Below the pieces are notes generated by a model, which did no database searches, was not told where the DNA came from, and worked only from the letters and a program-made list of their open reading frames with translations. The position numbers were made by a program, and so were the translations under genes. From contig CAZINI010000010.1 of assembly GCA_964540575.1 (NCBI GenBank), positions 42-64,041 on the forward strand: DNA of 64,000 nucleotides, in the 5' to 3' direction. Positions 9,454 to 52,771 of the stretch are shown one piece after another (position 1 is the first letter of the stretch; each line of letters starts with the position of its first letter). This DNA comes from an uncultured Ruminococcus sp. Its GTDB lineage: Bacteria; Bacillota; Clostridia; Oscillospirales; Ruminococcaceae.

Positions 9454-10566
9454 TTATTTATCGTTAATAATCTCCTCAAAAATGCCTTGGATCATTTTTG
9501 CGGCTTCATTCTTATCACTGCCCAATTCGTGTGAATATACTCCGTAAGTATCCATATCTTTACTGTGTCCTACAAGCTGTTTAAGGTATCCTTCGGGCAA
9601 TGATTTTGTAATAGAAACAAATGTGTGTCGCAGCTCATATAATGTTGTTTTGGCAGATAACTGATTATAATCACGGTATTTACGCCAATGCAGAGAATAT
9701 GTTCTTTCGGCAACATTTTCTCCATATTCATTTGGAAAGACAAATTTCGAAGTAATGCCGTTCCTTTTGAGCATTTCTTTTTGATCATCAAGGACTTGCT
9801 GTGAAAACTCTGTCAGTTGAAAACTGCGGCGAGCATTTTCATTTTTTCCACTTGTGACTTCGCCATATACGTTGATTGAACGCTTTAAATTAACGTCTTG
9901 TCCTTTTATGTCAGACCACTTTAAGCCAATGATCTCACCCGGACGCATTCCGGTTAATACTTGAAATCTATATGCGTTGATGTATATATCATATCTTTCG
10001 GCACCTTTTCTTAATGTAACATCTGAAAGAAAAAGCTTTTTTACGTCCTCGGGCTGTAAAATGGCTTTTTCTTTTGTTTTTGCTCCTTTGGGGATACTGA
10101 GATTTTCGGGATATAGCGTAGTATATTTATTCATACGGCAGAATTTAAGCCACGATGATATGCAATTCTTTATATTTTGCAGCGTTTTTTTAGCTAAGCC
10201 TTTATTGTAAGCGTTGTTGATGACGTTTTGTAAGTGCTGTTCGGTGAGAGCTTGTATTTTTAATGTGCCTATCTTGGGATTTATCCAATTGTTGATATAG
10301 CGTTCATATTGGATATAATGAGATTTTGAAGTAGTGAGCTTTAGCTGCTCAATATATTCTTCTGTTGTCTTTTTTACGTTCAGACGTGTATTGATTATGT
10401 TATCTTCAAGCCACGCATCGGCTTTTGCATTAGCTTCACGCTGTCCTGTTCTGCCGGGTGTGCTGCTGTAAAACGTTTTCCGTATTCCGTCCTTTTGGAC
10501 TTTTATCTGCCAGCGGTTGTATTTATCCATCCAAACGGCGGTGTTGGTGCGTTTCGTAGGTATCAC
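9454..10566 (-). CDS. int: tyrosine-type site-specific integrase
   Basis: 370-aa ORF with a GTG start behind AAAGGAAG. SAM-like N-terminal domain and catalytic C-terminus with R (TGMRPGE), HTFVS, HSKDMDTYGVYSH (H-x-x-R / Y context). Confidence 0.9.
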   Translation of the reverse strand: MIPTKRTNTAVWMDKYNRWQIKVQKDGIRKTFYSSTPGRTGQREANAKADAWLEDNIINTRLNVKKTTEEYIEQLKLTTSKSHYIQYERYINNWINPKIGTLKIQALTEQHLQNVINNAYNKGLAKKTLQNIKNCISSWLKFCRMNKYTTLYPENLSIPKGAKTKEKAILQPEDVKKLFLSDVTLRKGAERYDIYINAYRFQVLTGMRPGEIIGLKWSDIKGQDVNLKRSINVYGEVTSGKNENARRSFQLTEFSQQVLDDQKEMLKRNGITSKFVFPNEYGENVAERTYSLHWRKYRDYNQLSAKTTLYELRHTFVSITKSLPEGYLKQLVGHSKDMDTYGVYSHELGSDKNEAAKMIQGIFEEIINDK

Positions 10567-12972: not shown

Positions 12973-13112
12973 AAGTCTGTAAAGCCTTATTCTATTAGGG
13001 TTCGCAGGCTCGGTAAACAAGCTTATAACAAGTATATAAATATGTTATATAAACAAGCAATCTAACATTTGACGGTTTGACTGTTGGTTTTCATCAGAAA
13101 AGAAGTGAAAAA

Positions 13113-14135
13113 ATGTCTGAAAAAAAGGAATACGTTATTGAGATGTCACACAGGCTCAATTTGATGCGGAGTGAAAAATTCTGTACTAATGAGCTGAAAG
13201 TATTGGATAAATACTTATCAAGAATAAATCCACGTGATAAGAGTACCCGGAAAGTAATCTTTACTCTCAAGGAGTTTCAGAAGGATCTGGGAATAACCGA
13301 TCTGAGATATAAAACTCTCAGAACTAATGTAGAAGCTCTTCTCGGAAGATGTGTGTTTCTTCCGAATGCTAATACGGGTGAATTTATTGGCTTCCAGCTT
13401 TTTAAGGAAGTTGAGTTGAAAAAAGATGATGTAAAGGGTTGGATCGTTACTCTTGATTGCCACGACAGAGCTGTCGATTTGTTTTTTGATATTGCAAAGG
13501 ACGGTTATTTCATCAGAAAGCTGAAATATAGTATGCGTCTTAACTCTGCAAATCAGATAAAGTTCTATATGCTGATGAAGGAATATGAAGGACTCGGCAA
13601 AAAGACGATAAAGCTTGCAGAGCTTATCGATTGGCTCAAGGTAAATCCTGATATGCCGTGGAAATATTTTAAGCGTGACGTAGTCGATATTTGTCAAAAA
13701 GCATTGTCTGAGCTTACGGACGTAACTTTCACATATGAGTGTAAACGATGTGGGCATTCATACGAATACATTACCTTTTTCATAAAGCCGAACCATCAGG
13801 AACAACTAATGTTTGATGATTATGAAGAAAACGAGGAATATCAAACAAAAGTCGAAAATGATGAACAGGAAAAAGAAAATACATACAGCAATGAAAAAAT
13901 TGAATTTCTTGCCGATGCCTGCGATAATTACTTTTCGGAAGATGAAATGCAAATCATTTACAGTATCATAGCTAGGAAGATACCAAGCCATAAAGATGAT
14001 TTAGCAAGATATGATTACCTGCTTCTTAAATACAAGGAGCTAAAACACAGAATTTCCCGAACAGATTTGCCGCCATTAAAATCAAAGTTCAATTACTTCA
14101 AATTTATGCTTGAAAATGATGTTAAGGAGGATTGA
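13113..14135 (+). CDS. rep: plasmid-type replication initiator (Rep_3/RepB-like, tentative family)
   Basis: About 340-aa ORF directly downstream of the iterons. The N-terminus resembles winged-helix initiators (IEMSHRLNLMRSEKFCTNELKVLDKYLSRI). ATG 13113 preferred over the track start 13077. Confidence 0.65.
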   Translation: MSEKKEYVIEMSHRLNLMRSEKFCTNELKVLDKYLSRINPRDKSTRKVIFTLKEFQKDLGITDLRYKTLRTNVEALLGRCVFLPNANTGEFIGFQLFKEVELKKDDVKGWIVTLDCHDRAVDLFFDIAKDGYFIRKLKYSMRLNSANQIKFYMLMKEYEGLGKKTIKLAELIDWLKVNPDMPWKYFKRDVVDICQKALSELTDVTFTYECKRCGHSYEYITFFIKPNHQEQLMFDDYEENEEYQTKVENDEQEKENTYSNEKIEFLADACDNYFSEDEMQIIYSIIARKIPSHKDDLARYDYLLLKYKELKHRISRTDLPPLKSKFNYFKFMLENDVKED

Positions 14136-14779: not shown

Positions 14780-15229
14780 ATGAAAGCGATACCGTTGGAA
14801 TTATGGCAGGCAAACGAATTTGTTGATAAGTATCATCGCCATCATAGTAGTGTTTACAGAGATAAGTTTAGGATAGGCTGTGTAGATGATGATGGTAATC
14901 TTATCGGAGTCGTACAATGTTCACGTCCTGTAAGTAGGATTTTAGACGATGGAAAAACAATAGAGGTTGTACGACTTTGTACAGATGGCAGTAGGAATGT
15001 ATGCTCTTTCCTTTATTCAAGAGCGGCTCGGATTGCTACCGAAATGGGATATAAGAAAATTATCACATACATACTTGAAGATGAAAACGGAAGGTCGCTT
15101 AAGTCTTGTGGTTGGCAAAAGGAATGTGACATAAAAGGACACGATTGGAGCTGTCCATCACGTCCAAGAAATACTAAAGCACCGACTTGTGACAAACAGC
15201 GATGGTGCAGAATACTCAATCAGAAATGA
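14780..15229 (+). CDS. GNAT-fold protein of a phage/ICE-associated family (XF1762-like, tentative)
   Basis: 149-aa ORF behind CAGGAGGGCGG. FVDKYHRHHSS...GVVQCSRPVSR...VRLCTDG...MGYKKIITYILEDENGRSLKSCGW. Confidence 0.4.
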   Translation: MKAIPLELWQANEFVDKYHRHHSSVYRDKFRIGCVDDDGNLIGVVQCSRPVSRILDDGKTIEVVRLCTDGSRNVCSFLYSRAARIATEMGYKKIITYILEDENGRSLKSCGWQKECDIKGHDWSCPSRPRNTKAPTCDKQRWCRILNQK

Positions 15230-16275: not shown

Positions 16276-17736
16276 ATGCCGATAATTAAACACGTTGCTG
16301 TCCGAAAGCACCCGCTGAAGCTTTTGCAGTATATTACAAGAGGGGATAAGACCGACCAAGCAAAATATGTGACGGGGCTGAATTGTACAGCCGAAGTGCA
16401 AAGTGCGTATCAGGAGCTTGCGGCAACCTTTGAATGTTTCTCACAGGAGCGGTTTTATAAAAAGTCGCTGAATGAACAAAGTGAGGAAAACAATGAGAAA
16501 GTTTCAAAAGAGAAAATTCGGCTGCACCATTATATCCAATCTTTCAAGCCCGGTGAGGTTACGCCCGAAGAAGCTCACGAGATAGGAATTGAATGGGCGA
16601 AGCGGGTGTTCGGCAATAATCATCAGGTGTTGGTGAGTACGCATATCGACAGGGGACACATACATAATCATTTCGCAGTTTCCGCTTATGATCTGGAAGG
16701 CAAGCATTGGATAGACAATAAAGCGACTCTCAGGCATTGTTGGAAGATTTCCAACGATATTGCTTTGGAACACGGACTTAGCATTGTAGAAAATGAGAAA
16801 TATAAAGCCAATCATAAATACGGAGAATGGCTTGCAAGAAAGAACGGCATATCGTGGAAGCAAAAGCTTTGTGACGATATTGACCGCTTGATTTTGCAAG
16901 ACGAAGTGAGGAGTGTTGATGATTTGGCTGAACAGCTTCGCAAGCTTGGATATGTCGTAAATCACGGAAAGCATATTTCTGTTAAAGCATCTAAAAACCG
17001 AAAAGCAGTCAGAACGCTTCGGCTGGGTGACGGCTATGGTATAGAGGAACTGCAATATCGCATAGAGCATAAAAATCAGGAAATGTCACTTGCAGCTGTA
17101 ATGAAGTATGATGGTATTCAGAGAGAGTACGCACTTTGCTTGCGGCAGTTGCAGATTATGGTTTTCAGGAAATCTGAAAATCATTTGAAGGCTTCTTTTT
17201 CGGATTTAAGAAAAAATTCGGAACTGCTCAGTTTCCTTACCGAAAGAAATATTCGGTCTGTAACGGAATTTGAAAATCTGGTAAATGAAACAGCCGAAAA
17301 ATCCGATGAACTTTCCAAAAAGAAGAAACAACTTGCTTCGGAAATTGAGAAAGAAGAACAATTTCTTGCGATTGCCGAAAAGTATGCCGAGATAAATTCA
17401 AAAGAAAAACCTTCGCCCTCCGATATAAAGGAATTGATGGAAATGAAGAAAAAGCTTCCGGCGGGATTTTCCGATTTATCCAATATTGAAGCACATAAGA
17501 AAAAGCTTACAGAGCTGAAATCTCAATTTGCTGTGACAGCGGAAAATTTTGAAATAGTAAATGCTGAGAAGAAAGAGTACGGCAGCTATTATCAAAATTA
17601 TCTGCGGCAGATGCAAAGCGATTATGACATCCTGCTGGAAAAAGCTCGGGCAGAACAGAAAGCACTTGAAGAACAAAGGGCGGAAAAAGCTGAACTGGAT
17701 ATGGAAGATGAAAATCGAAGGAAGCGGGATAGGTAA
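16276..17736 (+). CDS. relaxase/mobilisation nuclease
   Basis: 486-aa ORF with an HxDxxHxH histidine triad (THIDRGHIHNHF), an N-terminal relaxase fold and a coiled-coil C-terminus. Confidence 0.85.
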   Translation: MPIIKHVAVRKHPLKLLQYITRGDKTDQAKYVTGLNCTAEVQSAYQELAATFECFSQERFYKKSLNEQSEENNEKVSKEKIRLHHYIQSFKPGEVTPEEAHEIGIEWAKRVFGNNHQVLVSTHIDRGHIHNHFAVSAYDLEGKHWIDNKATLRHCWKISNDIALEHGLSIVENEKYKANHKYGEWLARKNGISWKQKLCDDIDRLILQDEVRSVDDLAEQLRKLGYVVNHGKHISVKASKNRKAVRTLRLGDGYGIEELQYRIEHKNQEMSLAAVMKYDGIQREYALCLRQLQIMVFRKSENHLKASFSDLRKNSELLSFLTERNIRSVTEFENLVNETAEKSDELSKKKKQLASEIEKEEQFLAIAEKYAEINSKEKPSPSDIKELMEMKKKLPAGFSDLSNIEAHKKKLTELKSQFAVTAENFEIVNAEKKEYGSYYQNYLRQMQSDYDILLEKARAEQKALEEQRAEKAELDMEDENRRKRDR

Positions 17737-17757: not shown

Positions 17758-18057
17758 ATGCAGAACACAGCAAATAATCTGACCGAAACCGATTGGATCA
17801 ACATAGCATTGAAGCTTATGCATAAATACAAAAAAGAGCAGCATACATTTCCGCACCCGGCAGAGGAAAACTTAAAGTCTTGGACGGGAGAGTCTTGCCG
17901 TGGAATTGCCGAACAGATAAAAACTCATAGTGCTTCGGATAATGACTTTGGTGTCCTGTCAATGGAATGTGCGATCCTTATTTTGAACAAGCTCGCAGAT
18001 AATATGAAAGCTGATGAAACGCTTGAAGAGTATTTTCAGAGAAATGCAGTGAATTGA
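17758..18057 (+). CDS. hypothetical protein
   Basis: 99-aa ORF behind AGAGAGGTG, co-directional. Confidence 0.5.
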   Translation: MQNTANNLTETDWINIALKLMHKYKKEQHTFPHPAEENLKSWTGESCRGIAEQIKTHSASDNDFGVLSMECAILILNKLADNMKADETLEEYFQRNAVN

Positions 18058-18081
18058 AAAATTCAGAAGGGAGAATAGTCT

Positions 18082-18798
18082 ATGGTAGATAATAAGATAG
18101 GTTTCCTTAATGCTGATGATATGGTTATTCTAAATGAATGTCTGACAGATGATAATTGTGATAACGCTATTGTCAGAGTATCTAATGATGAGTCTGATAA
18201 AGATTTAGACTTTTTGACAAAACAAATATTAATGCGTTCCGATCTTTTCCGCATTAATGATACAGAAAGGTTTATAAAGATTTTAAGAATACTAGAAGAA
18301 TGTTGGTACGATTATAAACTGCCATTTCAAGAGTTAATTATTATACCGATACTTAAAAAACAACTTGAAAAGGAAATCGGAATGGAACGTAATCAAGTAA
18401 TATACGAGGTTGATTATCGAACGGGTACCGTAAACGAAAGAGTTTTTCAGAAGATAAGCGACGTTAATAAATTTGACTTAACATTTAAATGTAAGGGCGG
18501 AATATATGTAAGCTTCGAAGCGGCTGCAAAAAATTATCAGGACGCAGAAAAACTACTTGCTATTCGGATGGAAAAAGAACATAAATTATTGGCACATATT
18601 TTAGGACAAGACATTGCCGACAAACTGATTAATACAAAAGAATATCATTGTGCCCGTTTGCAGATGGGCGTTCCTTATATCGAAGATGGAATGAAATTAA
18701 TTATAAAGAGAATCCTCCGCAATAAGAGGGAGGAAAAGGAGATTGAAGAAGAAAACGAACGTTATCGTTCAGAAATACAGCAGATAATAGAGTCGTGA
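18082..18798 (+). CDS. hypothetical protein
   Basis: 238-aa ORF behind AAGGGAGAA. No motif recognised. Confidence 0.6.
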   Translation: MVDNKIGFLNADDMVILNECLTDDNCDNAIVRVSNDESDKDLDFLTKQILMRSDLFRINDTERFIKILRILEECWYDYKLPFQELIIIPILKKQLEKEIGMERNQVIYEVDYRTGTVNERVFQKISDVNKFDLTFKCKGGIYVSFEAAAKNYQDAEKLLAIRMEKEHKLLAHILGQDIADKLINTKEYHCARLQMGVPYIEDGMKLIIKRILRNKREEKEIEEENERYRSEIQQIIES

Positions 18799-18813
18799 AT
18801 GGAAGGATATATT

Positions 18814-19356
18814 ATGGCAATTATGGATAATGAAAAAATGCGTGATTATAATCAGCAGTTGGTTATGGAAATAGTGGATTTGTTCCCTAAGAGCAAAAAA
18901 GTAACGGTAATTCAGAAGAGCAATAACGTTACCGTGAAGGTTAATGGCAGTAGTGCGACTGTCATATTATATGTCAATGAGAATATCAATATTTTCTGCA
19001 AAGTATTTACTGTTAATTTTCAAGGAGTAGCCTCATCGTACTGTTACTTTGACCATAAGGACTATCAAAACGGCAGAAAGCTTGATTTGCGGTCTTATCG
19101 CACCAGAACAGTTAAAGTAATCAGATACCTTATCAGCGAAGCTGTGAATATGACTTACTGTCCCGAATGGCGTAAAAGAATGACCCCGAGCAATGCTACC
19201 AAAACGGAGTTTGATACATACGGATTGTATGGCTGCTGGGAGGGCAGATTTTTGGAAGAGCATAATTACAACGATGAAGATAAAATAGCTGAGTGGATAG
19301 ATAGGTGTACAAATCCCAAAACGGAGCTTGAACGCCGTAAGCTTAGCGGGGAATAA
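18814..19356 (+). CDS. hypothetical protein
   Basis: About 180-aa ORF. ATG 18814 behind GGAAGGA is preferred to 18799. Confidence 0.55.
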   Translation: MAIMDNEKMRDYNQQLVMEIVDLFPKSKKVTVIQKSNNVTVKVNGSSATVILYVNENINIFCKVFTVNFQGVASSYCYFDHKDYQNGRKLDLRSYRTRTVKVIRYLISEAVNMTYCPEWRKRMTPSNATKTEFDTYGLYGCWEGRFLEEHNYNDEDKIAEWIDRCTNPKTELERRKLSGE

Positions 19357-19369
19357 GAAAGGAAATCAT

Positions 19370-19657
19370 ATGATATTAAATGAAGAAGTAATGGCAAGAG
19401 AAAAAATGAAAGCTTTTTTTCAGAAGCCGCAGGGAACTATGTTTTCCAGAATTGAAATTTGCAATTATGAGAATAAGCCTGCGATAGTGATTTCATTTTG
19501 GAATAATCGAAATCCGATCGCATTCCGAATGGAAGCAGCGGAGTATTTCACAGCTGATGAGCTTGTCGAAATATTCAAAATTCAAACATTCAGAGGTGGA
19601 GAAATACGGGACGATTGGTACGATATATTCAGTCAATGGATAGAGCGGATACCATAA
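19370..19657 (+). CDS. hypothetical protein
   Basis: 95-aa ORF behind AAAGGAAA. Confidence 0.5.
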   Translation: MILNEEVMAREKMKAFFQKPQGTMFSRIEICNYENKPAIVISFWNNRNPIAFRMEAAEYFTADELVEIFKIQTFRGGEIRDDWYDIFSQWIERIP

Positions 19658-19678
19658 TGAACTTGAAAGGAGCAGAAA

Positions 19679-20593
19679 ATGAGAAGTGAAAATTGGAATA
19701 ACTGCACATCGACTGTAAGGACAAACTTCCATACTGACTTGAAGTGCCAAACAGAAAGACAATGGGCGAAACAGGGCTATCTGAAAAATGATGCGGATTG
19801 TGGCAAGAAACTGTGGGTAAATCAATATTGCCGAACACAATCACTCTATCTGTTTGCCGACGAGGTGCATAAGGCATCTGATGAAGAAGTCAGAGCCTAC
19901 TTTGCCCCGGAACGTGAACGCAGGAACGCTATTCGGAGAAAACGCCGAGCAGAAGCAAAACAGCAGCGTATCTTTGAAGAGAACCGAAAGAAAGTGTTCC
20001 GGAAAAGAGAACAGGCGGCAGCCGAAACTGTGCTGCAACGCACACCGGATGGTAAACGCACCATAGTCATAGATACAGAAACAACAGGACTTGATAGCAG
20101 CTCAGACGAGATTTTACAGTTATCTATCATTGACGAACAGGGAAGCACCCTTTTCAATGCTTATTTCAAGCCTATCACTGCTACCGAGTGGAAAGCTGCG
20201 GAACGTGTAAACGGCATTTCTCCGCAAATGGTGGCTGATTGTGAGGACATTTATGATTATTTCGGCGAGATACAGCAGATTTTGTACGATGCAGATATAA
20301 TCGTCGGATATAATACGGAGTTTGACCTTAATTTCCTTGTAAATTGTGGCTTTGAGCTGAGTGAGGACACGATAACAGTTGATGTTATGCGGGAATTTGC
20401 ACCGATATATGGAGAATGGAGCGAGGATAGGCAGGATTACAAGTGGCAGAAGCTCACCACCTGTGCGGAATATTATGGATATGATTGGAAAAAGTCAGAA
20501 AAAGCACACAATTCTCTTGGTGACTGCTTTGCAACTCTTTTCTGCTATACAAAAATAAGAGAGCAAGAACAAGCAAATAAAAAAGAAATCTGA
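19679..20593 (+). CDS. DEDDh 3'-5' exonuclease (DnaQ/epsilon-like) with an N-terminal extension
   Basis: Exo I IVIDTETTGLD, Exo II GYNTEFDLNFL, Exo III AHNSLGDCFAT. About 120 aa of basic N-terminal extension. Confidence 0.75.
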   Translation: MRSENWNNCTSTVRTNFHTDLKCQTERQWAKQGYLKNDADCGKKLWVNQYCRTQSLYLFADEVHKASDEEVRAYFAPERERRNAIRRKRRAEAKQQRIFEENRKKVFRKREQAAAETVLQRTPDGKRTIVIDTETTGLDSSSDEILQLSIIDEQGSTLFNAYFKPITATEWKAAERVNGISPQMVADCEDIYDYFGEIQQILYDADIIVGYNTEFDLNFLVNCGFELSEDTITVDVMREFAPIYGEWSEDRQDYKWQKLTTCAEYYGYDWKKSEKAHNSLGDCFATLFCYTKIREQEQANKKEI

Positions 20594-20607
20594 AGGGAAC
20601 CTATATT

Positions 20608-20862
20608 ATGAAACAGAAGTATATTGATAGGCTTATTAGCGGCAGGACAGCAGGCGAGGACTTTATGTATTTTCTTCGCAAGCTCCCCGATGAGCTTGAT
20701 GTTTATTTGGCTTTGCAGGATATATTTGATAATACGGAGGAAAATGGAGCGGATTGGGCAACTAGGCAGTTCCAGCAGATCGCTAAACAGTATCTGAGTG
20801 ATGATGCGGAATTTATGAGGTTGATTAATGAAGATGAAAAGAATAGCTCTGCACGACAGTGA
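20608..20862 (+). CDS. hypothetical protein
   Basis: 84-aa ORF behind GAAGGGAA. Confidence 0.45.
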   Translation: MKQKYIDRLISGRTAGEDFMYFLRKLPDELDVYLALQDIFDNTEENGADWATRQFQQIAKQYLSDDAEFMRLINEDEKNSSARQ

Positions 20863-21799
20863 ACAGGAATACATATCACATAAAACTTTTCCGAATTATG
20901 CGTTGATGAAAATATCCGCATATCATAAATCGCAAGGAGATACCGTTGAATGGTGGCTGCCGTTATTGCAATATGACATAGTGTATTCCAGCAAGATATT
21001 CGATTTCACTCCCGAAAATCCCTATTTGCCGCCTGATACTATAAAAGGCGGGACGGGCTATGATGTACACTCTGTTCTCCCGCCGGAAATAGATGATATG
21101 TTTCCCGATTACAGCATTTATCCCGAATGTGATTATGCGATAGGATTTATAACAAGAGGTTGTCCGAACAAATGCCGATGGTGTGTCGTTCCCGAAAAAG
21201 AGGGTAATATAAAGCCTTATAGGGAATGGCGGCAGCTTATACGATCCGACAGCGACAAGCTGGTACTTATGGATAACAATATTCTTGCAAGCGACTTCGG
21301 CATAGCACAGCTTGAGAATATGATTGGCAGCGGATATAAAATCGACCTGAATCAGGGAATGGACGCACGTCTTGTGACCGATGAAATAGCGGAGATACTG
21401 TCAAAGCTTTCTTGGATAAGGCATATTCGCTTTAGCTGTGACAGTATTCCTCAGATAGATGCTATTATTTCGGCAGCGGAAAAGCTTATGAAATATGGAG
21501 TCCGTCCTTACAGGCTGTTTGTTTATCTGCTTGTCACAAAGGATATTGATAATGCTGCATATCGTGTTGAGCAATTAAAAAGGCTTACGGGCATTAATAT
21601 CTATGCTCAGGCGGAGCGGAACACAAGAATGAATATCATTCCAAATGCAGAACAGCTTGAATTTGCTCAAAGATATGTTTACAGCGGGCGTTTCAGGCAG
21701 GAAACTTGGTATGAATACCGGGAAAGGATTTTTATAAAGAAATTCCCCAGTGGGGAAATCATAAGGAGTGGTCAGTATGACAATAAAAGAATTCTGTGA
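20828..21799 (+). CDS. radical SAM enzyme (unassigned subfamily)
   Basis: 323-aa ORF with a CxxxCxxC cluster (GCPNKCRWCVVPE). The last 20 aa (KKFPSGEIIRSGQYDNKRIL) read through palindrome P2 and overlap the next gene. Confidence 0.7.
   Translation: MKMKRIALHDSEQEYISHKTFPNYALMKISAYHKSQGDTVEWWLPLLQYDIVYSSKIFDFTPENPYLPPDTIKGGTGYDVHSVLPPEIDDMFPDYSIYPECDYAIGFITRGCPNKCRWCVVPEKEGNIKPYREWRQLIRSDSDKLVLMDNNILASDFGIAQLENMIGSGYKIDLNQGMDARLVTDEIAEILSKLSWIRHIRFSCDSIPQIDAIISAAEKLMKYGVRPYRLFVYLLVTKDIDNAAYRVEQLKRLTGINIYAQAERNTRMNIIPNAEQLEFAQRYVYSGRFRQETWYEYRERIFIKKFPSGEIIRSGQYDNKRIL
21741..21759. repeat. palindrome copy P2 (AATTCCCC-AGT-GGGGAAAT)
   Basis: Read directly. 17-nt gap to ATG 21777; lies inside the 3' tail of the radical SAM ORF. 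Confidence 0.9.
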
Positions 21800-23081
21800 G
21801 AAATACAATAAGGACGAGAAGAATGTTCGTGCAAAGGTTTTTCGCTATAAGAACGAGCTGAAAGACCACATAAGCAAAACGCCGTACACAAAAACATTGA
21901 ACCTTGATGATTATGCGGTGGAGTTTTTGCTTGAAGATCGGAGAGGTCGGTATAATCAAGATATTCCCGAACAGCCGACAGAGGAAGATACAACTGTGCG
22001 TCCGAACGATGTGGATATGTTTCCTCATTGGAGTGCGGAGAAGAAGCGGAGAGTAATGGATATATGCTTTCGAGAGGTAAAAAAATATTGGTACAGCTTG
22101 CGGTACATACCCGATGAATTTAAAACATATGAGCTATGCAAATATGCGGTTGAGAATCAGGGTCTTGCTTTGGAATATGTGCCTAAGTGGTTTGTTACGC
22201 AAGAAATATGCGATATAGCGGTGAAGGAAAACGGTATTGCATTGGCGTATGTTCCCGAAAAATATATGACCAAAGAAATGGTTAAAATTGCTTTTGATAA
22301 CTGTGCGAGTATGCAAAAGCGAGTAAAAAGGTATATGATGACTATTGATGAAATGGACGCAGACGACCATCTGCTCAAATATGTACCCGACAGATTTATT
22401 GATAAAGATATATGTCTGAAAGCACTTGTTTACTGTGCAAGCAATGCACAATACATTCCGCCAAAATATATGGAAGATGAAGCAATGATTTCCGAAGCAA
22501 ATAAGGATATTGTAAGCAGGAAATATATACCTAAATGGTATTGGACAAAGGAGCACGTTATCGAAACCATAAAGAAATACACTGACGATAAAAGATTTAA
22601 CGGGCTGGTAGGAATTCCGAGAGAAGCTTTTGATTATGATTTCTATCTGGAGCTGATAGAATCCAAGCTGATAAATCCCGAAGATGTATATCAGAGTGAA
22701 TATTATTCGGAAATATTGAGTGCTTCGGAAAAGAACAGTATTCGTCAGATCGACATTGATAGGTATAATCGTTCCGAGGAATTATATGGTCTTGTTCAGA
22801 AGGACTCGAACAATATCAGACTTATCCCGCTTGATGATGAAAGATATGAAACATATGCTACATTGGCAGTATGCAAATGCGGAGAAACTCTGAAATACAT
22901 ACCCGTTGAAAGGCGTGACTTTGATTTGTGTAGAGCTGCTATAGAAGATGATCCGAATGCGATGCGGTATGTTCCCGATGAATTTAAGGAACAGATAGTG
23001 GAGGAAATCAAGCATCGTACAAATTGGCTCAGATATTTGTTTGACGATGGGTATTTCTCGGATATTTTATCTGAGATGTAA
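21777..23081 (+). CDS. DUF4116 repeat protein
   Basis: Repeated (L/A)xYVP(D/E)x(F/Y)xTxE(I/M)Cxx(A/V) units (ALEYVPKWFVTQEICDIAV, LAYVPEKYMTKEMVKIAF, LKYVPDRFIDKDICLKAL, MRYVPDEFKEQ). ATG 21777 is 8 nt after AAGGAG. Confidence 0.7.
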   Translation: MTIKEFCEKYNKDEKNVRAKVFRYKNELKDHISKTPYTKTLNLDDYAVEFLLEDRRGRYNQDIPEQPTEEDTTVRPNDVDMFPHWSAEKKRRVMDICFREVKKYWYSLRYIPDEFKTYELCKYAVENQGLALEYVPKWFVTQEICDIAVKENGIALAYVPEKYMTKEMVKIAFDNCASMQKRVKRYMMTIDEMDADDHLLKYVPDRFIDKDICLKALVYCASNAQYIPPKYMEDEAMISEANKDIVSRKYIPKWYWTKEHVIETIKKYTDDKRFNGLVGIPREAFDYDFYLELIESKLINPEDVYQSEYYSEILSASEKNSIRQIDIDRYNRSEELYGLVQKDSNNIRLIPLDDERYETYATLAVCKCGETLKYIPVERRDFDLCRAAIEDDPNAMRYVPDEFKEQIVEEIKHRTNWLRYLFDDGYFSDILSEM

Positions 23082-23086
23082 TGAAA

Positions 23087-23105
23087 AATTCCCCACCGGG
23101 GAATT
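23087..23105. repeat. palindrome copy P3 (AATTCCCC-ACC-GGGGAATT)
   Basis: Read directly. 5 nt after the stop at 23081 and a 16-nt gap to ATG 23122. Confidence 0.95.
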
Positions 23106-23121
23106 GGAGAGGAAGGTCATT

Positions 23122-23568
23122 ATGAATAACATTGAAGAACTGTACAAATTTCATAAAAATGTGGTATTATGGGTAGAGGAGATGATACTGAGAAATGAAC
23201 TTCGGCTGCGTGATGTTCCCGGTGAAATACGGCGAACATCAAAGCTGATTTACATAGCGGCATTTAGGGCAAGCAGAAGTGTATCCTGCTTTAGGTTTAT
23301 TTCTGATTTGCAGGTGCTCTGTGAAGATATTGCTCTTCTGCCCGATACCGATAAAAAAAGAAAATCGGAACTGATAGCTCTTCTCAGTGATACTCTCCAA
23401 TTAAGTGATTATAAGGGTGATGAACGCTTTGAAGCTTTTAAAAAGGATATGGACGAAGATGTTTTGCGAGAATTGCACAGCTATGAATATGCTCACGGAA
23501 AGCAATTGCAAGCTATGCTCAGAGAATACCGAACTAAAAATGGAATTAAGGGAATTTCAAAAGGTTGA
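23122..23568 (+). CDS. hypothetical protein
   Basis: 148-aa ORF behind GGAGAGGAAGG. Confidence 0.5.
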   Translation: MNNIEELYKFHKNVVLWVEEMILRNELRLRDVPGEIRRTSKLIYIAAFRASRSVSCFRFISDLQVLCEDIALLPDTDKKRKSELIALLSDTLQLSDYKGDERFEAFKKDMDEDVLRELHSYEYAHGKQLQAMLREYRTKNGIKGISKG

Positions 23569-23995
23569 AGGTCTTAACGAAACTTCTGAACAGATATTAT
23601 GTATTCGGACACATTGCAATAATCACATTTGTATAACCGCAGCGGCGAAATATGATTATAAAAATGCTGTTTCGGCGATAGATTTCAAGCTTTACAAATT
23701 GGACAATTTCGGTGATATTTCACAGGCTTGCATTGGAAGGTCATTCTGCAAAATTAACGGAAGTGTTTTCTGCATTGCCGATATTGGCATTGAGGAGCAA
23801 TATCGTAATAACGGTTACGGTTCATTGCTTCTGTCGGAAATCATTAAATATGCAGAGCAACTTAATGTGACGAAAATAAAGGGAAGAGTCTATTATGGTG
23901 ATGTTAAAGAAAATGAAGCTAAAGATCGGCTTTATCATTTTTATGAAGAGCACGGCTTTGTTATAGATGAAGGAAGGCTGACCTTATGTCTGTGA
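23540..23995 (+). CDS. GNAT-family acetyltransferase (start uncertain)
   Basis: The C-terminal half has the acetyl-CoA motif IEEQYRNNGYGSLLLSEIIKYAEQ and YEEHGF. The track ORF starts at 23405; Met at 23540 minimises overlap with the upstream gene. Confidence 0.55.
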   Translation: MELREFQKVEGLNETSEQILCIRTHCNNHICITAAAKYDYKNAVSAIDFKLYKLDNFGDISQACIGRSFCKINGSVFCIADIGIEEQYRNNGYGSLLLSEIIKYAEQLNVTKIKGRVYYGDVKENEAKDRLYHFYEEHGFVIDEGRLTLCL

Positions 23996-24004
23996 CAAAA
24001 TAAA

Positions 24005-24021
24005 AATTCCCCACCGGGGAA
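24005..24021. repeat. palindrome copy P4 (AATTCCCC-ACC-GGGGAA)
   Basis: Read directly. 9 nt after the stop at 23995 and a 19-nt gap to ATG 24041. Confidence 0.95.
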
Positions 24022-24040
24022 CAGAAAGGAAACTGTGAAA

Positions 24041-25078
24041 ATGGAAAACCTTGATAAAATCTACGAAATCTGTATAAAACATCTGGAGGAATATCCAAGT
24101 GCGATAGAGTATGTCCCAGAACAGTATCTGACCGAGGAGCTGTGCATAGCAGCGTTAAATAGTAAACGGATGCGTTGGGGTTACGAAGCAAAGGAAATAT
24201 GGGAGCATATACCGATGGACAAGCTTACTCCGAAAGTATGTGAAGCTGCTGCTTGCAATAACAAGTATACGCTGGAGCATATTCCCGACAGCTGCAAAAC
24301 ATCAAAGGTGTTCTTTGAAGCGGTAAGAAGCTTTGGATATTTGCTGAAGGTCGTTCCGATAGCTTTTCACAGCAAGGAAATGTACATAAATTCCGTTTCG
24401 CAGAACGGCGGCAATCTTGAATATGTACCCGCAGAGAAACGTTCGGAGGAGATTTGCAAGGCTGCTTTCAATGCCAAGTATAACGGAGGAGCGGCGGTTG
24501 AATTTATCCCGGATAAGTATCTGACAGAAGATATGTGCCTTTCGGCTGTTTGCTCCGACGGAAAGCTGCTTGATGTTATCCCTACACATTACAAAACAGC
24601 CGAGATGTGTTTATCCGCATTGAAGCACAGCAGTTGGGTGACAATATGTGGGAACAGCAAATCAGCTGATAAGGCATTTTCTGATTATGTCAAGAAACAT
24701 ATCCCCGCAAAGGTGTCCGAGGAAGTATGTGAACGCTTTAATGAATACTTATCTTGGATCAACAAAGATAAAAATCAGGAAAACGAATGGAGAAGGCTTG
24801 TATCGGAAAATCCTCTTTACATAAAGAACATTCCCGAAGAAAAGAGGAGCAGCAATATATGCGAAATAGCAATAAAGCAGGAAGGACTTACGTTGAAATA
24901 CGTTCCCGAAAGGTATAGGAGCTTGCTTTATTGCCAATGGGCAGTGCTGAATAATCCCGATGCTCTTTTATATGTTCCCGAAGAAATGCGAAAAGAGGTG
25001 ATAACTTATGTTAAGGAAAGCTGTCAGTATGTAGGCGTTCTGTTTGGAAACAGCCCTTACAAAGAATACTTTTTATGA
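24041..25078 (+). CDS. DUF4116 repeat protein (second copy)
   Basis: Repeats AIEYVPEQYLTEELCIAAL, LEHIPDSCKTSKVFFEAV, LEYVPAEKRSEEICKAAF, VEFIPDKYLTEDMCLSAV, LKYVPERYRSLLYCQWAV. Confidence 0.7.
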   Translation: MENLDKIYEICIKHLEEYPSAIEYVPEQYLTEELCIAALNSKRMRWGYEAKEIWEHIPMDKLTPKVCEAAACNNKYTLEHIPDSCKTSKVFFEAVRSFGYLLKVVPIAFHSKEMYINSVSQNGGNLEYVPAEKRSEEICKAAFNAKYNGGAAVEFIPDKYLTEDMCLSAVCSDGKLLDVIPTHYKTAEMCLSALKHSSWVTICGNSKSADKAFSDYVKKHIPAKVSEEVCERFNEYLSWINKDKNQENEWRRLVSENPLYIKNIPEEKRSSNICEIAIKQEGLTLKYVPERYRSLLYCQWAVLNNPDALLYVPEEMRKEVITYVKESCQYVGVLFGNSPYKEYFL

Positions 25079-25096
25079 TAATGGAAGGTGAATGAT

Positions 25097-25858
25097 ATGG
25101 CTTTTTTGGAAAAGTTTGACTTGCTTGACGATGATTTGAAATTACAGTATAATTCCCCGGTGGGGAATTGCAATGCCGAGAATGGAGGTACGAAAAAGAT
25201 GAAAGAACACAATGATTATTTTACGGAAGAAAAGTACAAAGAGATGTATGAATTGGCAAACAAGAGGGTAGATGGGCTTCGTGCTATGGCTGAGAATATT
25301 ATCTCGGGTGATAAAAAAATAATAGTTGATATAAAGACTACAAATTGGATGTTTAGCGGGACAGTTGCACCTAAAGCCGAGCTCCTGTGGCTGACGATAA
25401 TTGATACCGACGGAAATGTGCTGTATGACAGTGCATTGGCACCACATGAATATGAATTTAATCAGGATTTCAGGAGATTATCCAAAAGAACAGGAATAGA
25501 TTTTGACCGGCTGTCAAGTGCTCCGACGTTGAGAAATCAGCTCTATAAGATAAATGAGATACTACTTTCTGCAAAAGCTATTATAGGATACTCTGTTGGG
25601 AAGATTATGGGGTATCTCAGACAGTCGGGCTGTGTGTGGCGTTCCGATTGTGAGCTTGGTAGTCTGGATAAAGCGTTTGAGGATACTATCGCCGAAATTA
25701 CAGATAAAAGAAATGCCACACTTGAAGAATGTGCGGCATTTTGGGAATATGAATGGCAGAATGAAGGAACCGAACACAGTACACTTGATAACTGCCGTGC
25801 GATCCTGCATTGCTATAACAGAATGATCGAGGAGAGATTTGAACTTGACGACTATTGA
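25097..25858 (+). CDS. DEDD-exonuclease-like protein with degenerate catalytic motifs (start uncertain)
   Basis: Same fold pattern as 19679-20593, but Exo I reads VDIKTTNW (E replaced by K), Exo II reads GYSVGKIMGYL (no Asp), and Exo III reads EHSTLDNCRAI. An alternative start at ATG 25199 behind GGAGGT would put palindrome P5 in the 5' UTR. Confidence 0.5.
   Translation: MAFLEKFDLLDDDLKLQYNSPVGNCNAENGGTKKMKEHNDYFTEEKYKEMYELANKRVDGLRAMAENIISGDKKIIVDIKTTNWMFSGTVAPKAELLWLTIIDTDGNVLYDSALAPHEYEFNQDFRRLSKRTGIDFDRLSSAPTLRNQLYKINEILLSAKAIIGYSVGKIMGYLRQSGCVWRSDCELGSLDKAFEDTIAEITDKRNATLEECAAFWEYEWQNEGTEHSTLDNCRAILHCYNRMIEERFELDDY
25151..25169. repeat. palindrome copy P5 (AATTCCCC-GGT-GGGGAATT)
   Basis: Read directly. 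Translated as NSPVGN if the CDS starts at 25097. Confidence 0.95.
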
Positions 25859-25887: not shown

Positions 25888-26103
25888 TTATTCGCCCTTA
25901 TCTTGTTTTTCGAGATATTGGTAGTATTCTTCCAAGCATTTCCATACATAGTTTTTGAGGACGGCTCCCGGGGTGGTCTTGTTGATGGCACACCACTTCT
26001 TGAAATCGTCCGCTTCCTCCGTCCTCATACGGCAGCTGACCGAACGCATATTTTCCTTGTCCCATTTGCGGGCGTATTGCTTTTGTTTTTCCGATACAGG
26101 CAT
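25888..26103 (-). CDS. small ribbon-helix-helix-like DNA-binding protein (tentative)
   Basis: 71-aa basic ORF behind AGGAGG, divergent from the 26299 operon. Its promoter region carries inverted repeats. Confidence 0.45.
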   Translation of the reverse strand: MPVSEKQKQYARKWDKENMRSVSCRMRTEEADDFKKWCAINKTTPGAVLKNYVWKCLEEYYQYLEKQDKGE

Positions 26104-26116
26104 ATTATCAATCCTC

Positions 26117-26230
26117 CTATCAACAGTATATCACATATTTTATACTGTTGATAGTGACATTGTGTACAAACTTGCTGTTAAAAGTTTGTTTATATTTACT
26201 ATTGCAAAATACTGTTGACAGTAGTATAAT
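26117..26230. promoter_or_regulatory. operator inverted repeat plus consensus promoter
   Basis: CTATCAACAGTATA (26117-26130) and TATACTGTTGATAG (26141-26154) are perfect inverted repeats. A third half-site ATACTGTTGACAG (26209-26221) lies between TTGCAA (26202-26207) and TATAAT (26225-26230), which have a 17-nt spacer. Confidence 0.6.
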
Positions 26231-26298: not shown

Positions 26299-26625
26299 AT
26301 GGCAGCAGTTATCTTGTTATTGCCAATCAAGCTTTTGGGAAAGGCTATGTGTCACATAGCCGCAGCGGTTTTCGGAGCGGCGGGTTTTCTGATAGCATTG
26401 GCGGGAGCACTAACTCAGCGTGTGGGAGCGTTTATCGGAGGATTATGTTTGCTGTCTGTGATAGCCGCACTCATATTCCAAGCAGGGACGTCATTTATGC
26501 TTGCTGCCGCTGCTGCCGGAGTTGCGTTGATTTTATCTCCCTTTATTGTTATTGCAATAGCGGGAGTTATGTATGCGATTAGAGAAGCACTGCTCAATAT
26601 ATCGGAAGAAATCGACTTATACTAA
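26299..26625 (+). CDS. small membrane protein (3 TM)
   Basis: 108-aa hydrophobic ORF behind GGAGGGG. Confidence 0.55.
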   Translation: MAAVILLLPIKLLGKAMCHIAAAVFGAAGFLIALAGALTQRVGAFIGGLCLLSVIAALIFQAGTSFMLAAAAAGVALILSPFIVIAIAGVMYAIREALLNISEEIDLY

Positions 26626-26745
26626 ACACCATTAGAATTATGGAGAAGAAATCGCTGCAAAATCTTGCATATATGGATTTTGTGGCGAGAGATTCCCATA
26701 ATTCAATGAGTGTTTGGTATTATACCGTAACAGGAGGTAAATGTT

Positions 26746-48841: not shown

Positions 48842-50728
48842 ATGACCGAACAGGAAATGATCGCACAAATTGAGGAACGTCTGAGAAGTGAGTTTCAGGC
48901 GAAGCTTTCCGAGATGGAAAACAAGCTGAACAGCTTAAATGAAAAAGTACAGACCATAGAGCATTTTGTTGCGGCTATGAGTGCCGCACAGGATTTTGAA
49001 CAGACGATGGCTGAAATAGAAAGTGTAACAAAGCAGCTTACCGACTGTGAAAAAGCAACATTCTATTGCTATGACAGTTCCAATGATAAGTTTTTCTCTA
49101 ACGGAGATTATCGCAATTGGGCGGAGGAGCAGTCGGCAGATGACATAAAAAAAGCATTTGAAAGCAAGGAAATATTATCCGACAGCAAGGAAGCGGTGAT
49201 ACCGCTTGTGTCTGCAAGCGGCAGTTCGTTGGGAGTTATTGTCGCTGAAAAGGAAAACGGATTTACTTCTAAGGATTATGATAATTTCAGTCAGGGTTGT
49301 CAGATAGTGAATACTGTGGAGCTTGCTTTGAAAAAAGAGTTTGAGCATCAAGGTAAAATTACAGATGAGCTTACTCACCTTAAAAACAGGCAGGGACTTA
49401 ACGATTATTTGCATCATACTCTTTGCGGCAATATAAATAACGGCAAGGAAATAAGTATCCTTATGTGTGATATTGACCATTTCAAAAACGTCAACGATAC
49501 ATACGGACACGATGCAGGCGATATTATCCTCAAGGGCGTTGCGGAAGTATTGCAGGAAGGAACAAGGTCGGGAGCTGACTGTGCTTTCCGAATGGGCGGC
49601 GAAGAAATGGTGTGTATCCTGAACTGTCCTCCCGAAAAGGCGATGGACATTGCAGAGCGGCTGCGGGAAAAGGTAGAGAACACAGTACATCATATTGCCG
49701 TGAATAATGAACCTGTTGATGTCAAGGTAACAGTATCAATGGGCGTCCACAATATGCAGAAGCCTGATGTCGAGATGACTCCCGAAAATGCAAGACAGTT
49801 TTTTGATGAGCAATTCAAAAATGCGGATAAGGCGGTCTATGAAGCAAAAGAAACAGGCAGAAACAAGGTGATTTCAGCCGATGAGAACGTCTATATTGCG
49901 TACCTTGCAATGAAAGCTGCGGAAATTTTATGCAGCGATGATCGAACCAATGCTGATGATGTTAGGCAGCAGACAGTGAATTTGCTTACTGTCGGTGATC
50001 TTGAAACGATTACGGAAGCATTGCAGGCACATATTGAGGAACACCCGGATATGTCAGCGGCGGCAGAGAGCTTAATTACAAAGCTGGTAGATCTGTCGCA
50101 GACTTATGTGAAGGAAGAACAGGGAATAGAAACGGAGGAGAATACAATGAATGAGCAGGAAAGCAAGGCACCGACTTATTTCAATAAGGACGCATTTCGG
50201 AATATTCGGAATAAGGAATATATCAATACCGATTCAAAGACGGCATATACGATTTCCTTAAAAGCTCAGGAACAGGGCATTGAACATTCCGTAAAATATG
50301 ACGGCAAGCAGTCGGCAGTTACGTTTGACGGCGTTAGGGATAAGGCGTTTGTCGAAGCTGTCAGAAAGGAATTCAATATCTCCGAAAAGACTGCCGAGAA
50401 GCCTGCTCCCGAACAAAGCAAGAGTGAAGCTCCAAAAGAAAAAGCCCCGACTTTTTTCAATAAAGAGGGCTATAAGGACATTCAGAACAAGACATTTATT
50501 CAGACCGACTCAAAGACAGCCTATGCGATCTCCAAAGAAGCTGCAAAGCAAGGTGTAGAACATTCCGTGAAATATTACGGCAAGCAGTCGGCAGTTACGT
50601 TTGACGGCGTTAGGGATAAGGCGTTTATTGATACAGTAAAAAGTATGTCCGATTGGGCTGATAAGGTACAGGTCAAGGCTATCCGTGAGAAAGCACAGAC
50701 CGCACAGACGAAAAACGATGCAAGGTGA
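48842..50728 (+). CDS. GAF-like + GGDEF diguanylate-cyclase-type protein with two C-terminal about 70-aa repeats
   Basis: GGDEF domain (LTHLKNRQGL, CDIDHFKNVNDTYGHDAGD, RMGGEEM at 49595-49609). Preceded by a coiled coil and a GAF-like region. Followed by duplicated APT(Y/F)FNK...DSKTAY(T/A)IS...G(I/V)EHSVKY.GKQSAVTFDGVRDKAF modules. Confidence 0.8.
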   Translation: MTEQEMIAQIEERLRSEFQAKLSEMENKLNSLNEKVQTIEHFVAAMSAAQDFEQTMAEIESVTKQLTDCEKATFYCYDSSNDKFFSNGDYRNWAEEQSADDIKKAFESKEILSDSKEAVIPLVSASGSSLGVIVAEKENGFTSKDYDNFSQGCQIVNTVELALKKEFEHQGKITDELTHLKNRQGLNDYLHHTLCGNINNGKEISILMCDIDHFKNVNDTYGHDAGDIILKGVAEVLQEGTRSGADCAFRMGGEEMVCILNCPPEKAMDIAERLREKVENTVHHIAVNNEPVDVKVTVSMGVHNMQKPDVEMTPENARQFFDEQFKNADKAVYEAKETGRNKVISADENVYIAYLAMKAAEILCSDDRTNADDVRQQTVNLLTVGDLETITEALQAHIEEHPDMSAAAESLITKLVDLSQTYVKEEQGIETEENTMNEQESKAPTYFNKDAFRNIRNKEYINTDSKTAYTISLKAQEQGIEHSVKYDGKQSAVTFDGVRDKAFVEAVRKEFNISEKTAEKPAPEQSKSEAPKEKAPTFFNKEGYKDIQNKTFIQTDSKTAYAISKEAAKQGVEHSVKYYGKQSAVTFDGVRDKAFIDTVKSMSDWADKVQVKAIREKAQTAQTKNDAR

Positions 50729-52483: not shown

Positions 52484-52771
52484 ATGAATAAATGCTTTTT
52501 ACAGGGAGTGATCTCAAAAGCTCCCGTACAAACAGGCGATAATGTATTTGGCAGATTTGTTTTCACCATCATTCCGAATGGCAAAACTGAGGAAATCGAA
52601 GCTGTCGCTTGGACTTACAGAGGTTTCGGCAAACGCTACAAGTCTGGGGATAAGGTCGTTGTTATAGGCGAGAAACGCACCCGAAAAATACCCACCGACA
52701 ACGGCGTAAAATGTGTGCCGATAGTAGTTGTGGACAGCATTACGGCAAACAAGGAGGAGCATAACGTATGA
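52484..52771 (+). CDS. OB-fold, SSB-like small protein (tentative)
   Basis: 95-aa ORF behind AAAGGAGAA. The pattern CFLQGVISKAPV...FGRFVFTI...EIEAVAWTYRGFGKRYKSGDKVVVIGEKR resembles an SSB OB-fold. Confidence 0.4.
   Translation: MNKCFLQGVISKAPVQTGDNVFGRFVFTIIPNGKTEEIEAVAWTYRGFGKRYKSGDKVVVIGEKRTRKIPTDNGVKCVPIVVVDSITANKEEHNV

Follow-up and report, generated by a model that had tools for sequence, protein, structure and literature searches.

What is the role of twelve tightly packed genes that follow the relaxase gene of a conjugative element in a gut bacterium, and do they form one system? The question is raised by a 64,000-nucleotide stretch (the window) from an uncultured Ruminococcus sp. 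(assembly GCA_964540575.1, contig CAZINI010000010.1, positions 42 to 64,041 of the forward strand), in which the genes in question, hereafter the block, occupy positions 17,758–25,858. A first reading of the letters (the sequence-only reading) took the block for a candidate defence or anti-defence module, in which an exonuclease, a radical SAM enzyme, an acetyltransferase and repeat proteins might act together. The comparison with related loci described here shows that the 8.1-kb block occupies an insertion hotspot in an integrated conjugative element (ICE), bounded by the relaxase gene on one side and by a divergently oriented 71-aa repressor gene with the parAB operon on the other. Judged from the gene content of relatives, the block consists of three layers: a recurrent five-gene set, two independent cassettes and lineage-specific small open reading frames (ORFs). 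ICE accessory hotspots are of a known kind; the recurrent set inside this one is uncharacterised. It is moderately probable, in our estimation, that the block is a mosaic accessory region, whose separable nucleic-acid functions serve the element around transfer or establishment.

An Insertion Hotspot Behind the Relaxase Gene

The sequence-only reading described twelve co-directional, tightly packed genes, and all twelve plus-strand ORFs are indeed present, either overlapping or separated by spacers of 14–24 nt. The block proteins were compared with the Pfam, NCBIfam, PHROGs and PADLOC (PADLOC-DB 2.0) profile sets; every domain call of that reading was reproduced, and u99, u238, u185, u109, u84 and u150 obtained no assignment by any of the four. 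The description of the block as accessory cargo downstream of the relaxase also holds. In six related ICEs from species-representative genomes (L081, L087, L089–L092; relaxase 46–55% identical) mobC and the relaxase gene are followed, after 1.5–2.3 kb, by u159, parA and parB. In the window the same relaxase-to-u159 interval measures 9.2 kb. The hotspot of these six relatives is nearly empty, and all twelve block genes are missing from it.

Other relatives fill the position in other ways. In G309 it contains a radical SAM homolog, some 9 kb of unrelated genes that include a PIN protein and a TnpB-sized ORF, and then a u150-GNAT pair by the repressor gene. Hotspots of relatives also contain HicAB, PIN-Phd and YoeB-Phd pairs as well as genes of single-stranded DNA-binding protein (SSB), and the toxin-antitoxin pairs, placed on the opposite strand, have signals of their own. 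Insertion sequences (IS) or TnpB insertions are carried by relatives as well. The right edge of the hotspot is formed by rep71 (25888–26103, minus strand), a 71-aa repressor-like gene (phrog_876, transcriptional repressor, 1e-03), homologs of which (54–90% identical) flank the hotspot in G309, L120, L132, L133, L142 and L143. One contig of Huintestinicola butyrica Sanger_06 carries two of the related ICEs: the hotspot of L090 is empty, and that of L144 holds DUF4116a, u84 and exoL, with exo upstream of mobC.

The Recurrent Five-Gene Set

The genes exo, u84, DUF4116a, DUF4116b and exoL recur at this position in nine ICE lineages, i.e., the window, L131, L133, L136, L139, L140, L142, L143 and L144. 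The relaxase is 39–84% identical to that of the window in the eight lineages measured, and the order u84-DUF4116a-...-DUF4116b-exoL is preserved even where relaxase identity falls to 39%. The DUF4116 genes are invariably placed between the relaxase gene and the repressor/parAB operon. The set-bearing contigs were reached via DUF4116b and GNAT homologs (metagenomic contigs with Pfam-annotated neighbours) and H. butyrica via a profile scan; since loci were retrieved through DUF4116, independent evidence of co-occurrence comes only from exoL, u84 and exo. Nor is the set invariant. The exoL gene directly follows DUF4116b in six lineages (window, L131, L133, L136, L140 and L143), is interrupted by a transposase in L139 and gives way to YoeB-Phd in L142, and in L144, which has no DUF4116b, it follows a u84-like gene. 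The exo gene adjoins the set in the window, L131 and L133, and is placed upstream of mobC in L136 and L144.

The product of exo (19679–20593, plus strand) belongs to the DEDDh (DnaQ/RNase T-like) 3′–5′ exonucleases and starts with a 125-aa basic N-terminal region of unassigned fold. It matches RNase_T at 6e-13 (50 bits, cut-off 24), phrog_192 at 1e-41 and the generic DEDDh model of PADLOC, and its catalytic motifs (DxE / D / H-x4-D) are intact as IDTETT, GYNTEFD and HNSLGD, which points to an active-type enzyme. The ratio of non-synonymous to synonymous substitution rates (dN/dS) is 0.14–0.17. An ESM Atlas search with the N-terminal region and a look-up of the exact exo sequence returned nothing, and a pattern scan found one close relative only. 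The 84-aa protein u84 (20608–20862, plus strand) recurs directly upstream of DUF4116 genes: homologs with 47–78% identity precede DUF4116a or DUF4116b in L131, L133, L136, L139, L140, L143 and L144, in L142 u84 is fused onto the end of DUF4116b, and altogether u84 or a paralog stands ahead of a DUF4116 gene in eight lineages.

Two proteins of the set are built of DUF4116 repeats (PF13475; 81.3 bits for DUF4116a and 66.8 bits for DUF4116b, cut-off 24.9). DUF4116a (21777–23081, within the listed ORF 21768–23081; plus strand; Pfam 3.6e-23) begins with a 55-aa winged-helix-like domain that is nearly invariant, and a disordered linker joins this N-terminal domain to an alpha-solenoid of DUF4116 repeats, as deduced from an eight-lineage alignment and an AlphaFold2 (AF2) model with a predicted local distance difference test score (pLDDT) of 82.7. 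Fold searches with this model matched only DUF4116 proteins and generic solenoids. DUF4116b (24041–25078, within the listed ORF 24035–25078; plus strand; Pfam 1.2e-18) is a second alpha-solenoid repeat protein, whose homologs are 40–97% identical and all lie between the relaxase gene and parAB.

The last member of the set, exoL (25097–25858, plus strand; listed ORF 25088–25858, with an alternative internal start at 25199), is a DEDDh-fold paralog that appears to be catalytically dead. It has no Pfam match, and the fold relationship is based on 24–29% identity to active copies (24% to exo). Among the catalytic residues, the Glu of motif I is replaced and the Asp of motif II is missing in six of six lineages, and the His of motif III is lost in two of the six. 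Despite this catalytic loss the family retains conserved residues of its own, with dN/dS of 0.17–0.25. The orthologs of L131 and L133 carry an XRE-type helix-turn-helix (HTH) domain (HTH_3 at 1.6e-05 in the L133 ortholog), which a 153-nt in-frame deletion took out of the window gene; the undeleted form is present in metagenomes X3 and X4, and the HTH is absent from L136, L140 and L143 too.

A Radical SAM Gene That Moves Alone

The radical SAM gene (20828–21799, plus strand) encodes an enzyme in which a Rossmann-like N-terminal domain is followed by the CX3CX2C core. The cluster motif reads CPNKCRWC, and C112, C116 and C119 are invariant in 26 sequences. The protein matches phrog_9298 ("radical SAM domain protein") at 8e-77 and Pfam PF04055 with 19.3 bits, under the cut-off of 29.5. 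Its AF2 model (pLDDT 90.5) was related by Foldseek to QueE, BlsE, SuiB and MiaB with probability 1.0, but TM-scores reached 0.36–0.55; these matches are weak but consistent, MiaB being the best full-length one. A MiaB-like methylthiotransferase was nevertheless rejected as an assignment, for there is no conserved Cys in residues 1–100, where such enzymes have three for the auxiliary cluster, and no C-terminal TRAM domain. The native stop of the gene is lost, and its last ~20 codons, which read through the palindrome, really belong to the leader of the next gene.

Homologs (36–75% identical) were found in at least 91 stretches from Clostridial and a few other genomes, and neighbours were counted at 80 loci that were kept. 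Neither DUF4116 nor the GNAT of the block occurs at any of the 80, an exonuclease homolog occurs at five, and no neighbour cluster at more than 16. The co-occurrence of the radical SAM, exonuclease and DUF4116 genes, which the sequence-only reading suggested testing, thus does not extend to the radical SAM gene; only the subset of exo, u84, DUF4116a, DUF4116b and exoL recurs across diverged ICEs. Elsewhere, the most frequent immediate neighbours of the radical SAM gene encode a Mom-like protein, PAPS-reductase-like proteins of two clusters and DNA methylases of the N6/N4, Dam and C5 types, and the gene often stands beside orphan DNA methylases. Of 60 well-flanked loci, 23 have a gene of one of these kinds (Mom-like, PAPS-reductase-like, or N6/N4, Dam or C5 methylase) no farther than 300 nt away, and 32 have one no farther than 2.5 kb away. 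In about eight other elements a homolog of the Mom-like gene of the ICE stands immediately ahead of the radical SAM homolog. As obligate partners the two were rejected: among 401 genomes of the host family there are 21 carriers of the radical SAM gene and 15 of the Mom-like gene, with an overlap of two, where ~0.8 would be expected. What the two genes have in common is the type of neighbourhood, not an obligate pairing.

The gene is absent from L133, and it constitutes a 923-nt presence/absence polymorphism, the joint 20817>21741 being found in X3 and X9, both animal-gut metagenomes. In L136 it is truncated. The 91% identity of this fragment might have been taken for recent transfer, but with a dS of about 1.06 it reflects strong constraint instead. 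Two more homologs are present in the same genome (G000:C100:2785–3678 and G000:C108:1867–2757), each with one or two stop codons inside. By its distribution, the radical SAM gene is an independent, stand-alone and widespread cassette.

The u150-GNAT Cassette and the Lineage-Specific ORFs

The second cassette consists of u150 (23122–23568, plus strand; 148 aa) and the gene of a GNAT acetyltransferase of about 151 aa (23540–23995, plus strand; Acetyltransf_7 3e-07). The listed ORF of the latter begins at 23405, and its true start is probably 23540, homologs being called at 151–155 aa. The GNAT scores 31.1 bits with Acetyltransf_7 (cut-off 27) and 28.4 bits with Acetyltransf_1 (cut-off 20.7); its PDB matches are generic and do not include tRNA-acetylating toxins, TacT or AtaT. 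The conserved partner u150 is 61–97% identical in L131, G309 and L132 and always overlaps the GNAT gene from directly upstream. It was considered whether u150 holds a DUF4116 repeat, and this was rejected (hhalign probability 0.2 against DUF4116b). A toxin-antitoxin pair of GNAT and ribbon-helix-helix (RHH/DUF1778) proteins of the TacAT/AtaRT type was rejected as well, u150 having no Pfam, PHROG or PADLOC match, and only the overlapping two-gene layout is shared with such pairs. The pair is found in four lineages; in G309 and L132 it adjoins the repressor gene at 54–65% identity without DUF4116 or exo, so it is a cassette independent of the DUF4116 set.

The genes at the left end have narrower distributions. 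The 99-aa u99 (17758–18057, plus strand), which starts 21 nt past the relaxase stop, has homologs after the relaxase in L133 (87%), L144 (47%) and L136/L139 (27%) and beside a radical SAM gene in G018 (52%); its dN/dS is 0.33. The next gene, u238 (18082–18798, plus strand; 238 aa), is a variable insert in the lowest-GC stretch (0.33). No homolog was found in any of the related loci compared, the gene is missing from L133, where homology is broken at 18072/18795, and among the four metagenomes compared it is present in X9 only. The 185-aa u185 (18799–19356, plus strand) has a homolog in L133 only (65%; dN/dS 0.17), and neither a family match nor an ESM Atlas match was obtained for it; nothing usable came from the Atlas with u238 either. 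The small u109 (19328–19657, plus strand), with a probable ATG at 19370, has a homolog in L133 (85–95%) and dN/dS of 0.09. By this distribution u238, u185 and u109 are lineage-specific small ORFs. Along the block, dS differs several-fold between neighbouring genes (0.14–0.91 against L131), which implies mosaic histories.

Do the twelve genes then form one integrated, undescribed defence or anti-defence system? They are co-directional and tightly packed, and L131 retains eight of them in the same order. However, L131 is a close relative (84–93% nucleotide identity), so the shared order reflects ancestry. The whole combination of exonuclease, radical SAM enzyme, acetyltransferase and repeat proteins, which the sequence-only reading had proposed as a unit, occurs together only in the window and L131. 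Already in L133, with a relaxase 84% identical, the radical SAM gene, the u150-GNAT pair and u238 are lacking, u150-GNAT occurs away from DUF4116 and exo in G309 and L132, the 80 radical SAM loci contain no DUF4116 or GNAT gene, and metagenomes hold forms with and without the radical SAM gene. A single system is extremely improbable in our view, and the comparative data largely refute it.

Palindromes and the Exchange of Genes

The distal half of the block was said to be partitioned by five palindrome copies. Four of them are inside the block and the fifth (26256) is just outside it. The first copy (21743–21757) lies about 20 nt upstream of the DUF4116a start, the second (23089–23103) and third (24007–24021) form the left and right boundaries of the u150-GNAT cassette, and the fourth (25153–25167) is within the long exoL ORF, upstream of its internal start. 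The 19-bp palindrome, TTCCCC-N3-GGGGAA, has 15 copies in the window (0.16 expected) at positions 10576–59531, some of them inside long ORFs, and so is a feature of the whole element and not of the block. Tandem pairs occur inside the topoisomerase gene (46024 and 46042) and inside a giant gene encoding 3393 aa (59499 and 59517). The palindrome is placed directly ahead of ribosome-binding sites; read on the minus strand, several of its copies resemble intrinsic terminators.

That the distal half is cassette-like, as was also claimed, is supported by indels between relatives at palindromes and by the identical copies that flank u150-GNAT. The 20-mer at 23084–23103 is identical to that at 24002–24021 and brackets the pair, and the empty site of L133 has a single copy. 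Other junctions are close to palindromes: on its right, the radical SAM indel stops at the first palindrome base (21741), a HicAB insertion in L131 lies a few bases upstream of a copy, and the deletion by which a 269-aa gene of L131 was lost from the window ends in an A-run before a copy. Only the u150-GNAT bracketing directly implicates the repeat in recombination; the other junctions could merely reflect position, because the intergenic space is almost wholly palindrome. Some indels between the window and L131 or L133 use microhomology or have no repeat at one end. A palindrome-to-palindrome joint (25167/26250) in X3 comes from one contig with 15 unmatched letters and is not relied on.

May the palindromes be read by proteins of the set? 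DUF4116a and exoL could be DNA-binding regulators or maintenance factors of the element, concerned with transfer control and the 19-bp sites, rather than conflict genes. This would suit the near-invariant winged-helix-like domain of DUF4116a, the XRE-type HTH of exoL in L131 and L133 and the adjacency of the set to the repressor gene and the parAB promoter. Moreover, ICEs with the DUF4116 set share TTCCCC-N3-GGGGAA, while more distant relatives, which are set-less, use ATGTTCC-N3-GGAACAT. Nevertheless, the backbone does not need the set, since six related ICEs lack it. The HTH of exoL has been lost by deletion in the window and is missing from L136, L140 and L143, the co-variation of palindrome and set has two states only and follows the divergence of ParB as well, and the DNA binding of both proteins is only predicted. 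We regard a regulatory role as rather unlikely.

The variability of the region may also suggest that its genes are selfish or neutral passengers with no benefit to element or host. Its content is mosaic, gene gain and loss is frequent, relatives bear IS or TnpB insertions, exoL is transposase-split in L139 and the radical SAM gene truncated in L136. Against this stands purifying selection on every comparable block gene, including the dead exonuclease (dN/dS 0.06–0.33 against L131 and L133), together with the conserved order from u84 to exoL at 39% relaxase identity. Mere passengers are quite improbable.

Transfer, Establishment or Defence

What could the block do for its element? No convincing plus-strand terminator was found in the block and there is no room for promoters of its own, so the genes would be read through from the mobC-relaxase operon and would thus be expressed upon induction of transfer. 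Most likely they would process or modify nucleic acids for the element during transfer or establishment, and this is our best guess. Candidate activities would be an active 3′–5′ exonuclease and a radical SAM enzyme linked elsewhere to DNA-modification genes, and the putative DNA-binding solenoid and dead-nuclease proteins would act as binders or decoys, the block being a collection of separable functions and not one machine. A transfer-linked role is suggested because the genes stand in sense orientation behind the relaxase gene without own promoters, the toxin-antitoxin pairs taking the opposite strand, because the radical SAM gene keeps the company of DNA-modification genes elsewhere, and because the conserved proteins show DNA-binding and nuclease-fold features. 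The link to nucleic-acid modification that the sequence-only reading had made is supported by the company that the radical SAM gene keeps elsewhere.

Several points stand against this reading or limit it. The relaxase gene is typically found in the lagging region, the last to enter the recipient (Samuel et al., 2024; PMC11541004). By this usual rule the block would lie on the lagging side of the candidate origin of transfer (oriT), a position that does not favour a role in early establishment. On the opposite side of oriT from the block lies the Mom-like gene of the element. The recurrent set was retrieved via DUF4116 homology and its lineages are related ICEs, and it is rare: the DUF4116a profile was found in one of 401 host-family genomes, and a pattern scan gave two loci among 185,579 species representatives. 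The prediction of a DUF4116b-exoL complex scored 0.00 and gives no evidence either way, and sequencing runs that hold this sequence were found for DNA only, not for RNA. Finally, none of the block proteins could be assigned to a known family of anti-restriction, anti-CRISPR or defence proteins. PADLOC returned its generic DEDDh model for exo and nothing for the other block proteins, and anti-defence genes were recognised by none of the four profile sets, which are general (no dedicated anti-defence set of hidden Markov models was used). The absence of any named defence or anti-defence system, noted already in the sequence-only reading, was in this way confirmed, and nothing computed shows the defence or anti-defence role that it envisaged.

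One may still ask if the five-gene set alone is anti-phage defence cargo, comparable to that of SXT-type elements, with the solenoids as sensors and the exonuclease as effector. Its hotspot is variable and in relatives accommodates HicAB, PIN-Phd and YoeB-Phd pairs, related ICEs exist with and without it, and an active nuclease with an inactive paralog and repeat proteins would make a plausible sensor-effector layout. On the other hand, the set matches no PADLOC system and has no ATPase, NTPase or other usual signalling component of defence, exo is relocated upstream of mobC in L136 and L144, and sense genes behind the relaxase without promoters suit induction-linked rather than constitutive expression. 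Such defence cargo is improbable. A broader proposal is tentatively entertained, at low probability: u84, the winged-helix DUF4116a, DUF4116b and the dead DEDDh protein, together with exo, may be an undescribed ICE conflict system, a counter-defence binder or decoy or else a defence, set in an operon-embedded cassette platform where the 19-bp hairpins are joints for gene swaps between related ICEs.

The comparison with known systems reveals partial likeness in each case. Leading-region anti-defence islands of conjugative plasmids (PMC11541004) resemble the block in having co-oriented, tightly packed accessory genes by oriT and the relaxase gene; the hotspot of relatives holds SSB and toxin-antitoxin genes as such islands do, and the islands are enriched in orphan DNA methylases, the class that neighbours the radical SAM gene elsewhere. 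The block differs from them in its location on the relaxase side of the candidate oriT, the lagging region in the terms of that paper, and in the lack of ArdA, Acr, PsiB and methylase genes, and no single-stranded DNA (ssDNA) promoter was identified. Mom of phage Mu and the DNA-hypermodification genes of phages and mobile genetic elements (PMC7261163; PMC13219725) have a counterpart in the Mom-like gene of the ICE, whose homologs precede radical SAM homologs elsewhere; here, however, the Mom-like gene is outside the block, and any modified base is hypothetical.

Integron cassette arrays likewise consist of promoterless, co-oriented genes parted by hairpin-forming repeats, and u150-GNAT is repeat-flanked with a single copy at the empty site, but there is no IntI-type integrase beside the block, and its 19-bp perfect palindromes are 5′ of genes, unlike the 57–141-bp imperfect attC sites at the 3′ side. 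In ICEs of the SXT/R391 type, variable hotspots carry defence or accessory cargo. They share with the present hotspot a fixed backbone position, empty in some relatives and variously filled in others; they belong to another ICE family and phylum, and the cargo here is sense-oriented in the mob operon, with no recognised defence system. The CUP repeats that Delver and Belogurov are said to have described in 1997 within the IncN plasmid pKM101's leading region reportedly precede accessory genes and may favour their accretion by recombination; these elements are said to be about 100 bp long, with promoters and a repressor site. Common to both is a short conserved repeat ahead of several accessory genes of one direction, and the difference is that the repeat here is a 19-bp perfect palindrome immediately ahead of the ribosome-binding site, ICE-wide and also inside long ORFs.

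The Surrounding Element

From about 9.3 kb onward, where GC falls from ~0.48 to ~0.40, the window is an ICE of the Ruminococcus/Oscillospiraceae type of gut Clostridia. Its sole integrase, a tyrosine integrase (9454–10566, minus strand), is at the element end, 7 kb upstream of the block, and nearly all genes after it are on the plus strand. A 352-aa Rep_3-type replication initiator (13077–14135; Rep3_N 1e-12) implies that the integrated element has plasmid-type replication potential as well. The Mom-like DNA-modification gene (14780–15229, plus strand; 149 aa; phrog_1384 1.2e-30) is located outside the block, upstream of the candidate oriT and pointing toward it, and a homolog of it matches PF25680 Mom at 5.7e-06; the phrog_1384 match runs beyond an in-frame TGA to 15282. 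The MobA/VirD2-type relaxase gene (16276–17736, plus strand) is accompanied by a NikA/MobC-like accessory gene. Other ICE genes in the window encode ParA/ParB, the type IV coupling protein (T4CP), VirB4, a topoisomerase, a GGDEF protein and a DUF3991-Toprim primase, and the GGDEF diguanylate cyclase gene (48842–50728) sits amid transfer genes. The polyvalent ORF of 3393 aa (52768–62949) contains LPD3, LPD16, LPD18, DUF3848, YodL, an Eco57I-type methylase and a ResIII/DEAD helicase, and is probably the main anti-restriction device of the element.

A divergent control region (25888–26230) follows the block, which comprises rep71, two direct repeats ATACTGTTGA(T/C)AGT and, facing rep71, a promoter-like site, TTGCAA-17-TATAAT (26202–26230, plus strand), at the start of the tm108-u91-u159-parA-parB operon. 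Between tm108 and u91 lies an imperfect hairpin of 103 nt (26619–26720), which as ssDNA folds better in the plus strand (-26.7 kcal/mol, z = -7.4) than in the minus strand. Its 85-nt core recurs at 89–96% identity, often in multiple copies, in at least 12 genomes that span several genera, and a second copy is present in the same genome (G000:C33:24158–24241). The hairpin matches no Rfam family, and the Rfam search of 12–31 kb found none; its candidate roles are those of a single-strand origin, an ssDNA promoter or an RNA leader.

Implications

Conjugative elements of gut Clostridia move genes among commensals of animals and people, and their accessory regions are almost unannotated. From the hotspot described here three testable units can be separated, i.e., the five-gene set around DUF4116 solenoid proteins and a dead exonuclease, which are protein types without known function, the widespread stand-alone radical SAM gene that is found near DNA-modification genes, and the hairpin-punctuated hotspot of gene exchange itself. 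The cultured strain Huintestinicola butyrica Sanger_06, with one related ICE that bears the set and one that does not, makes experiments on them feasible.

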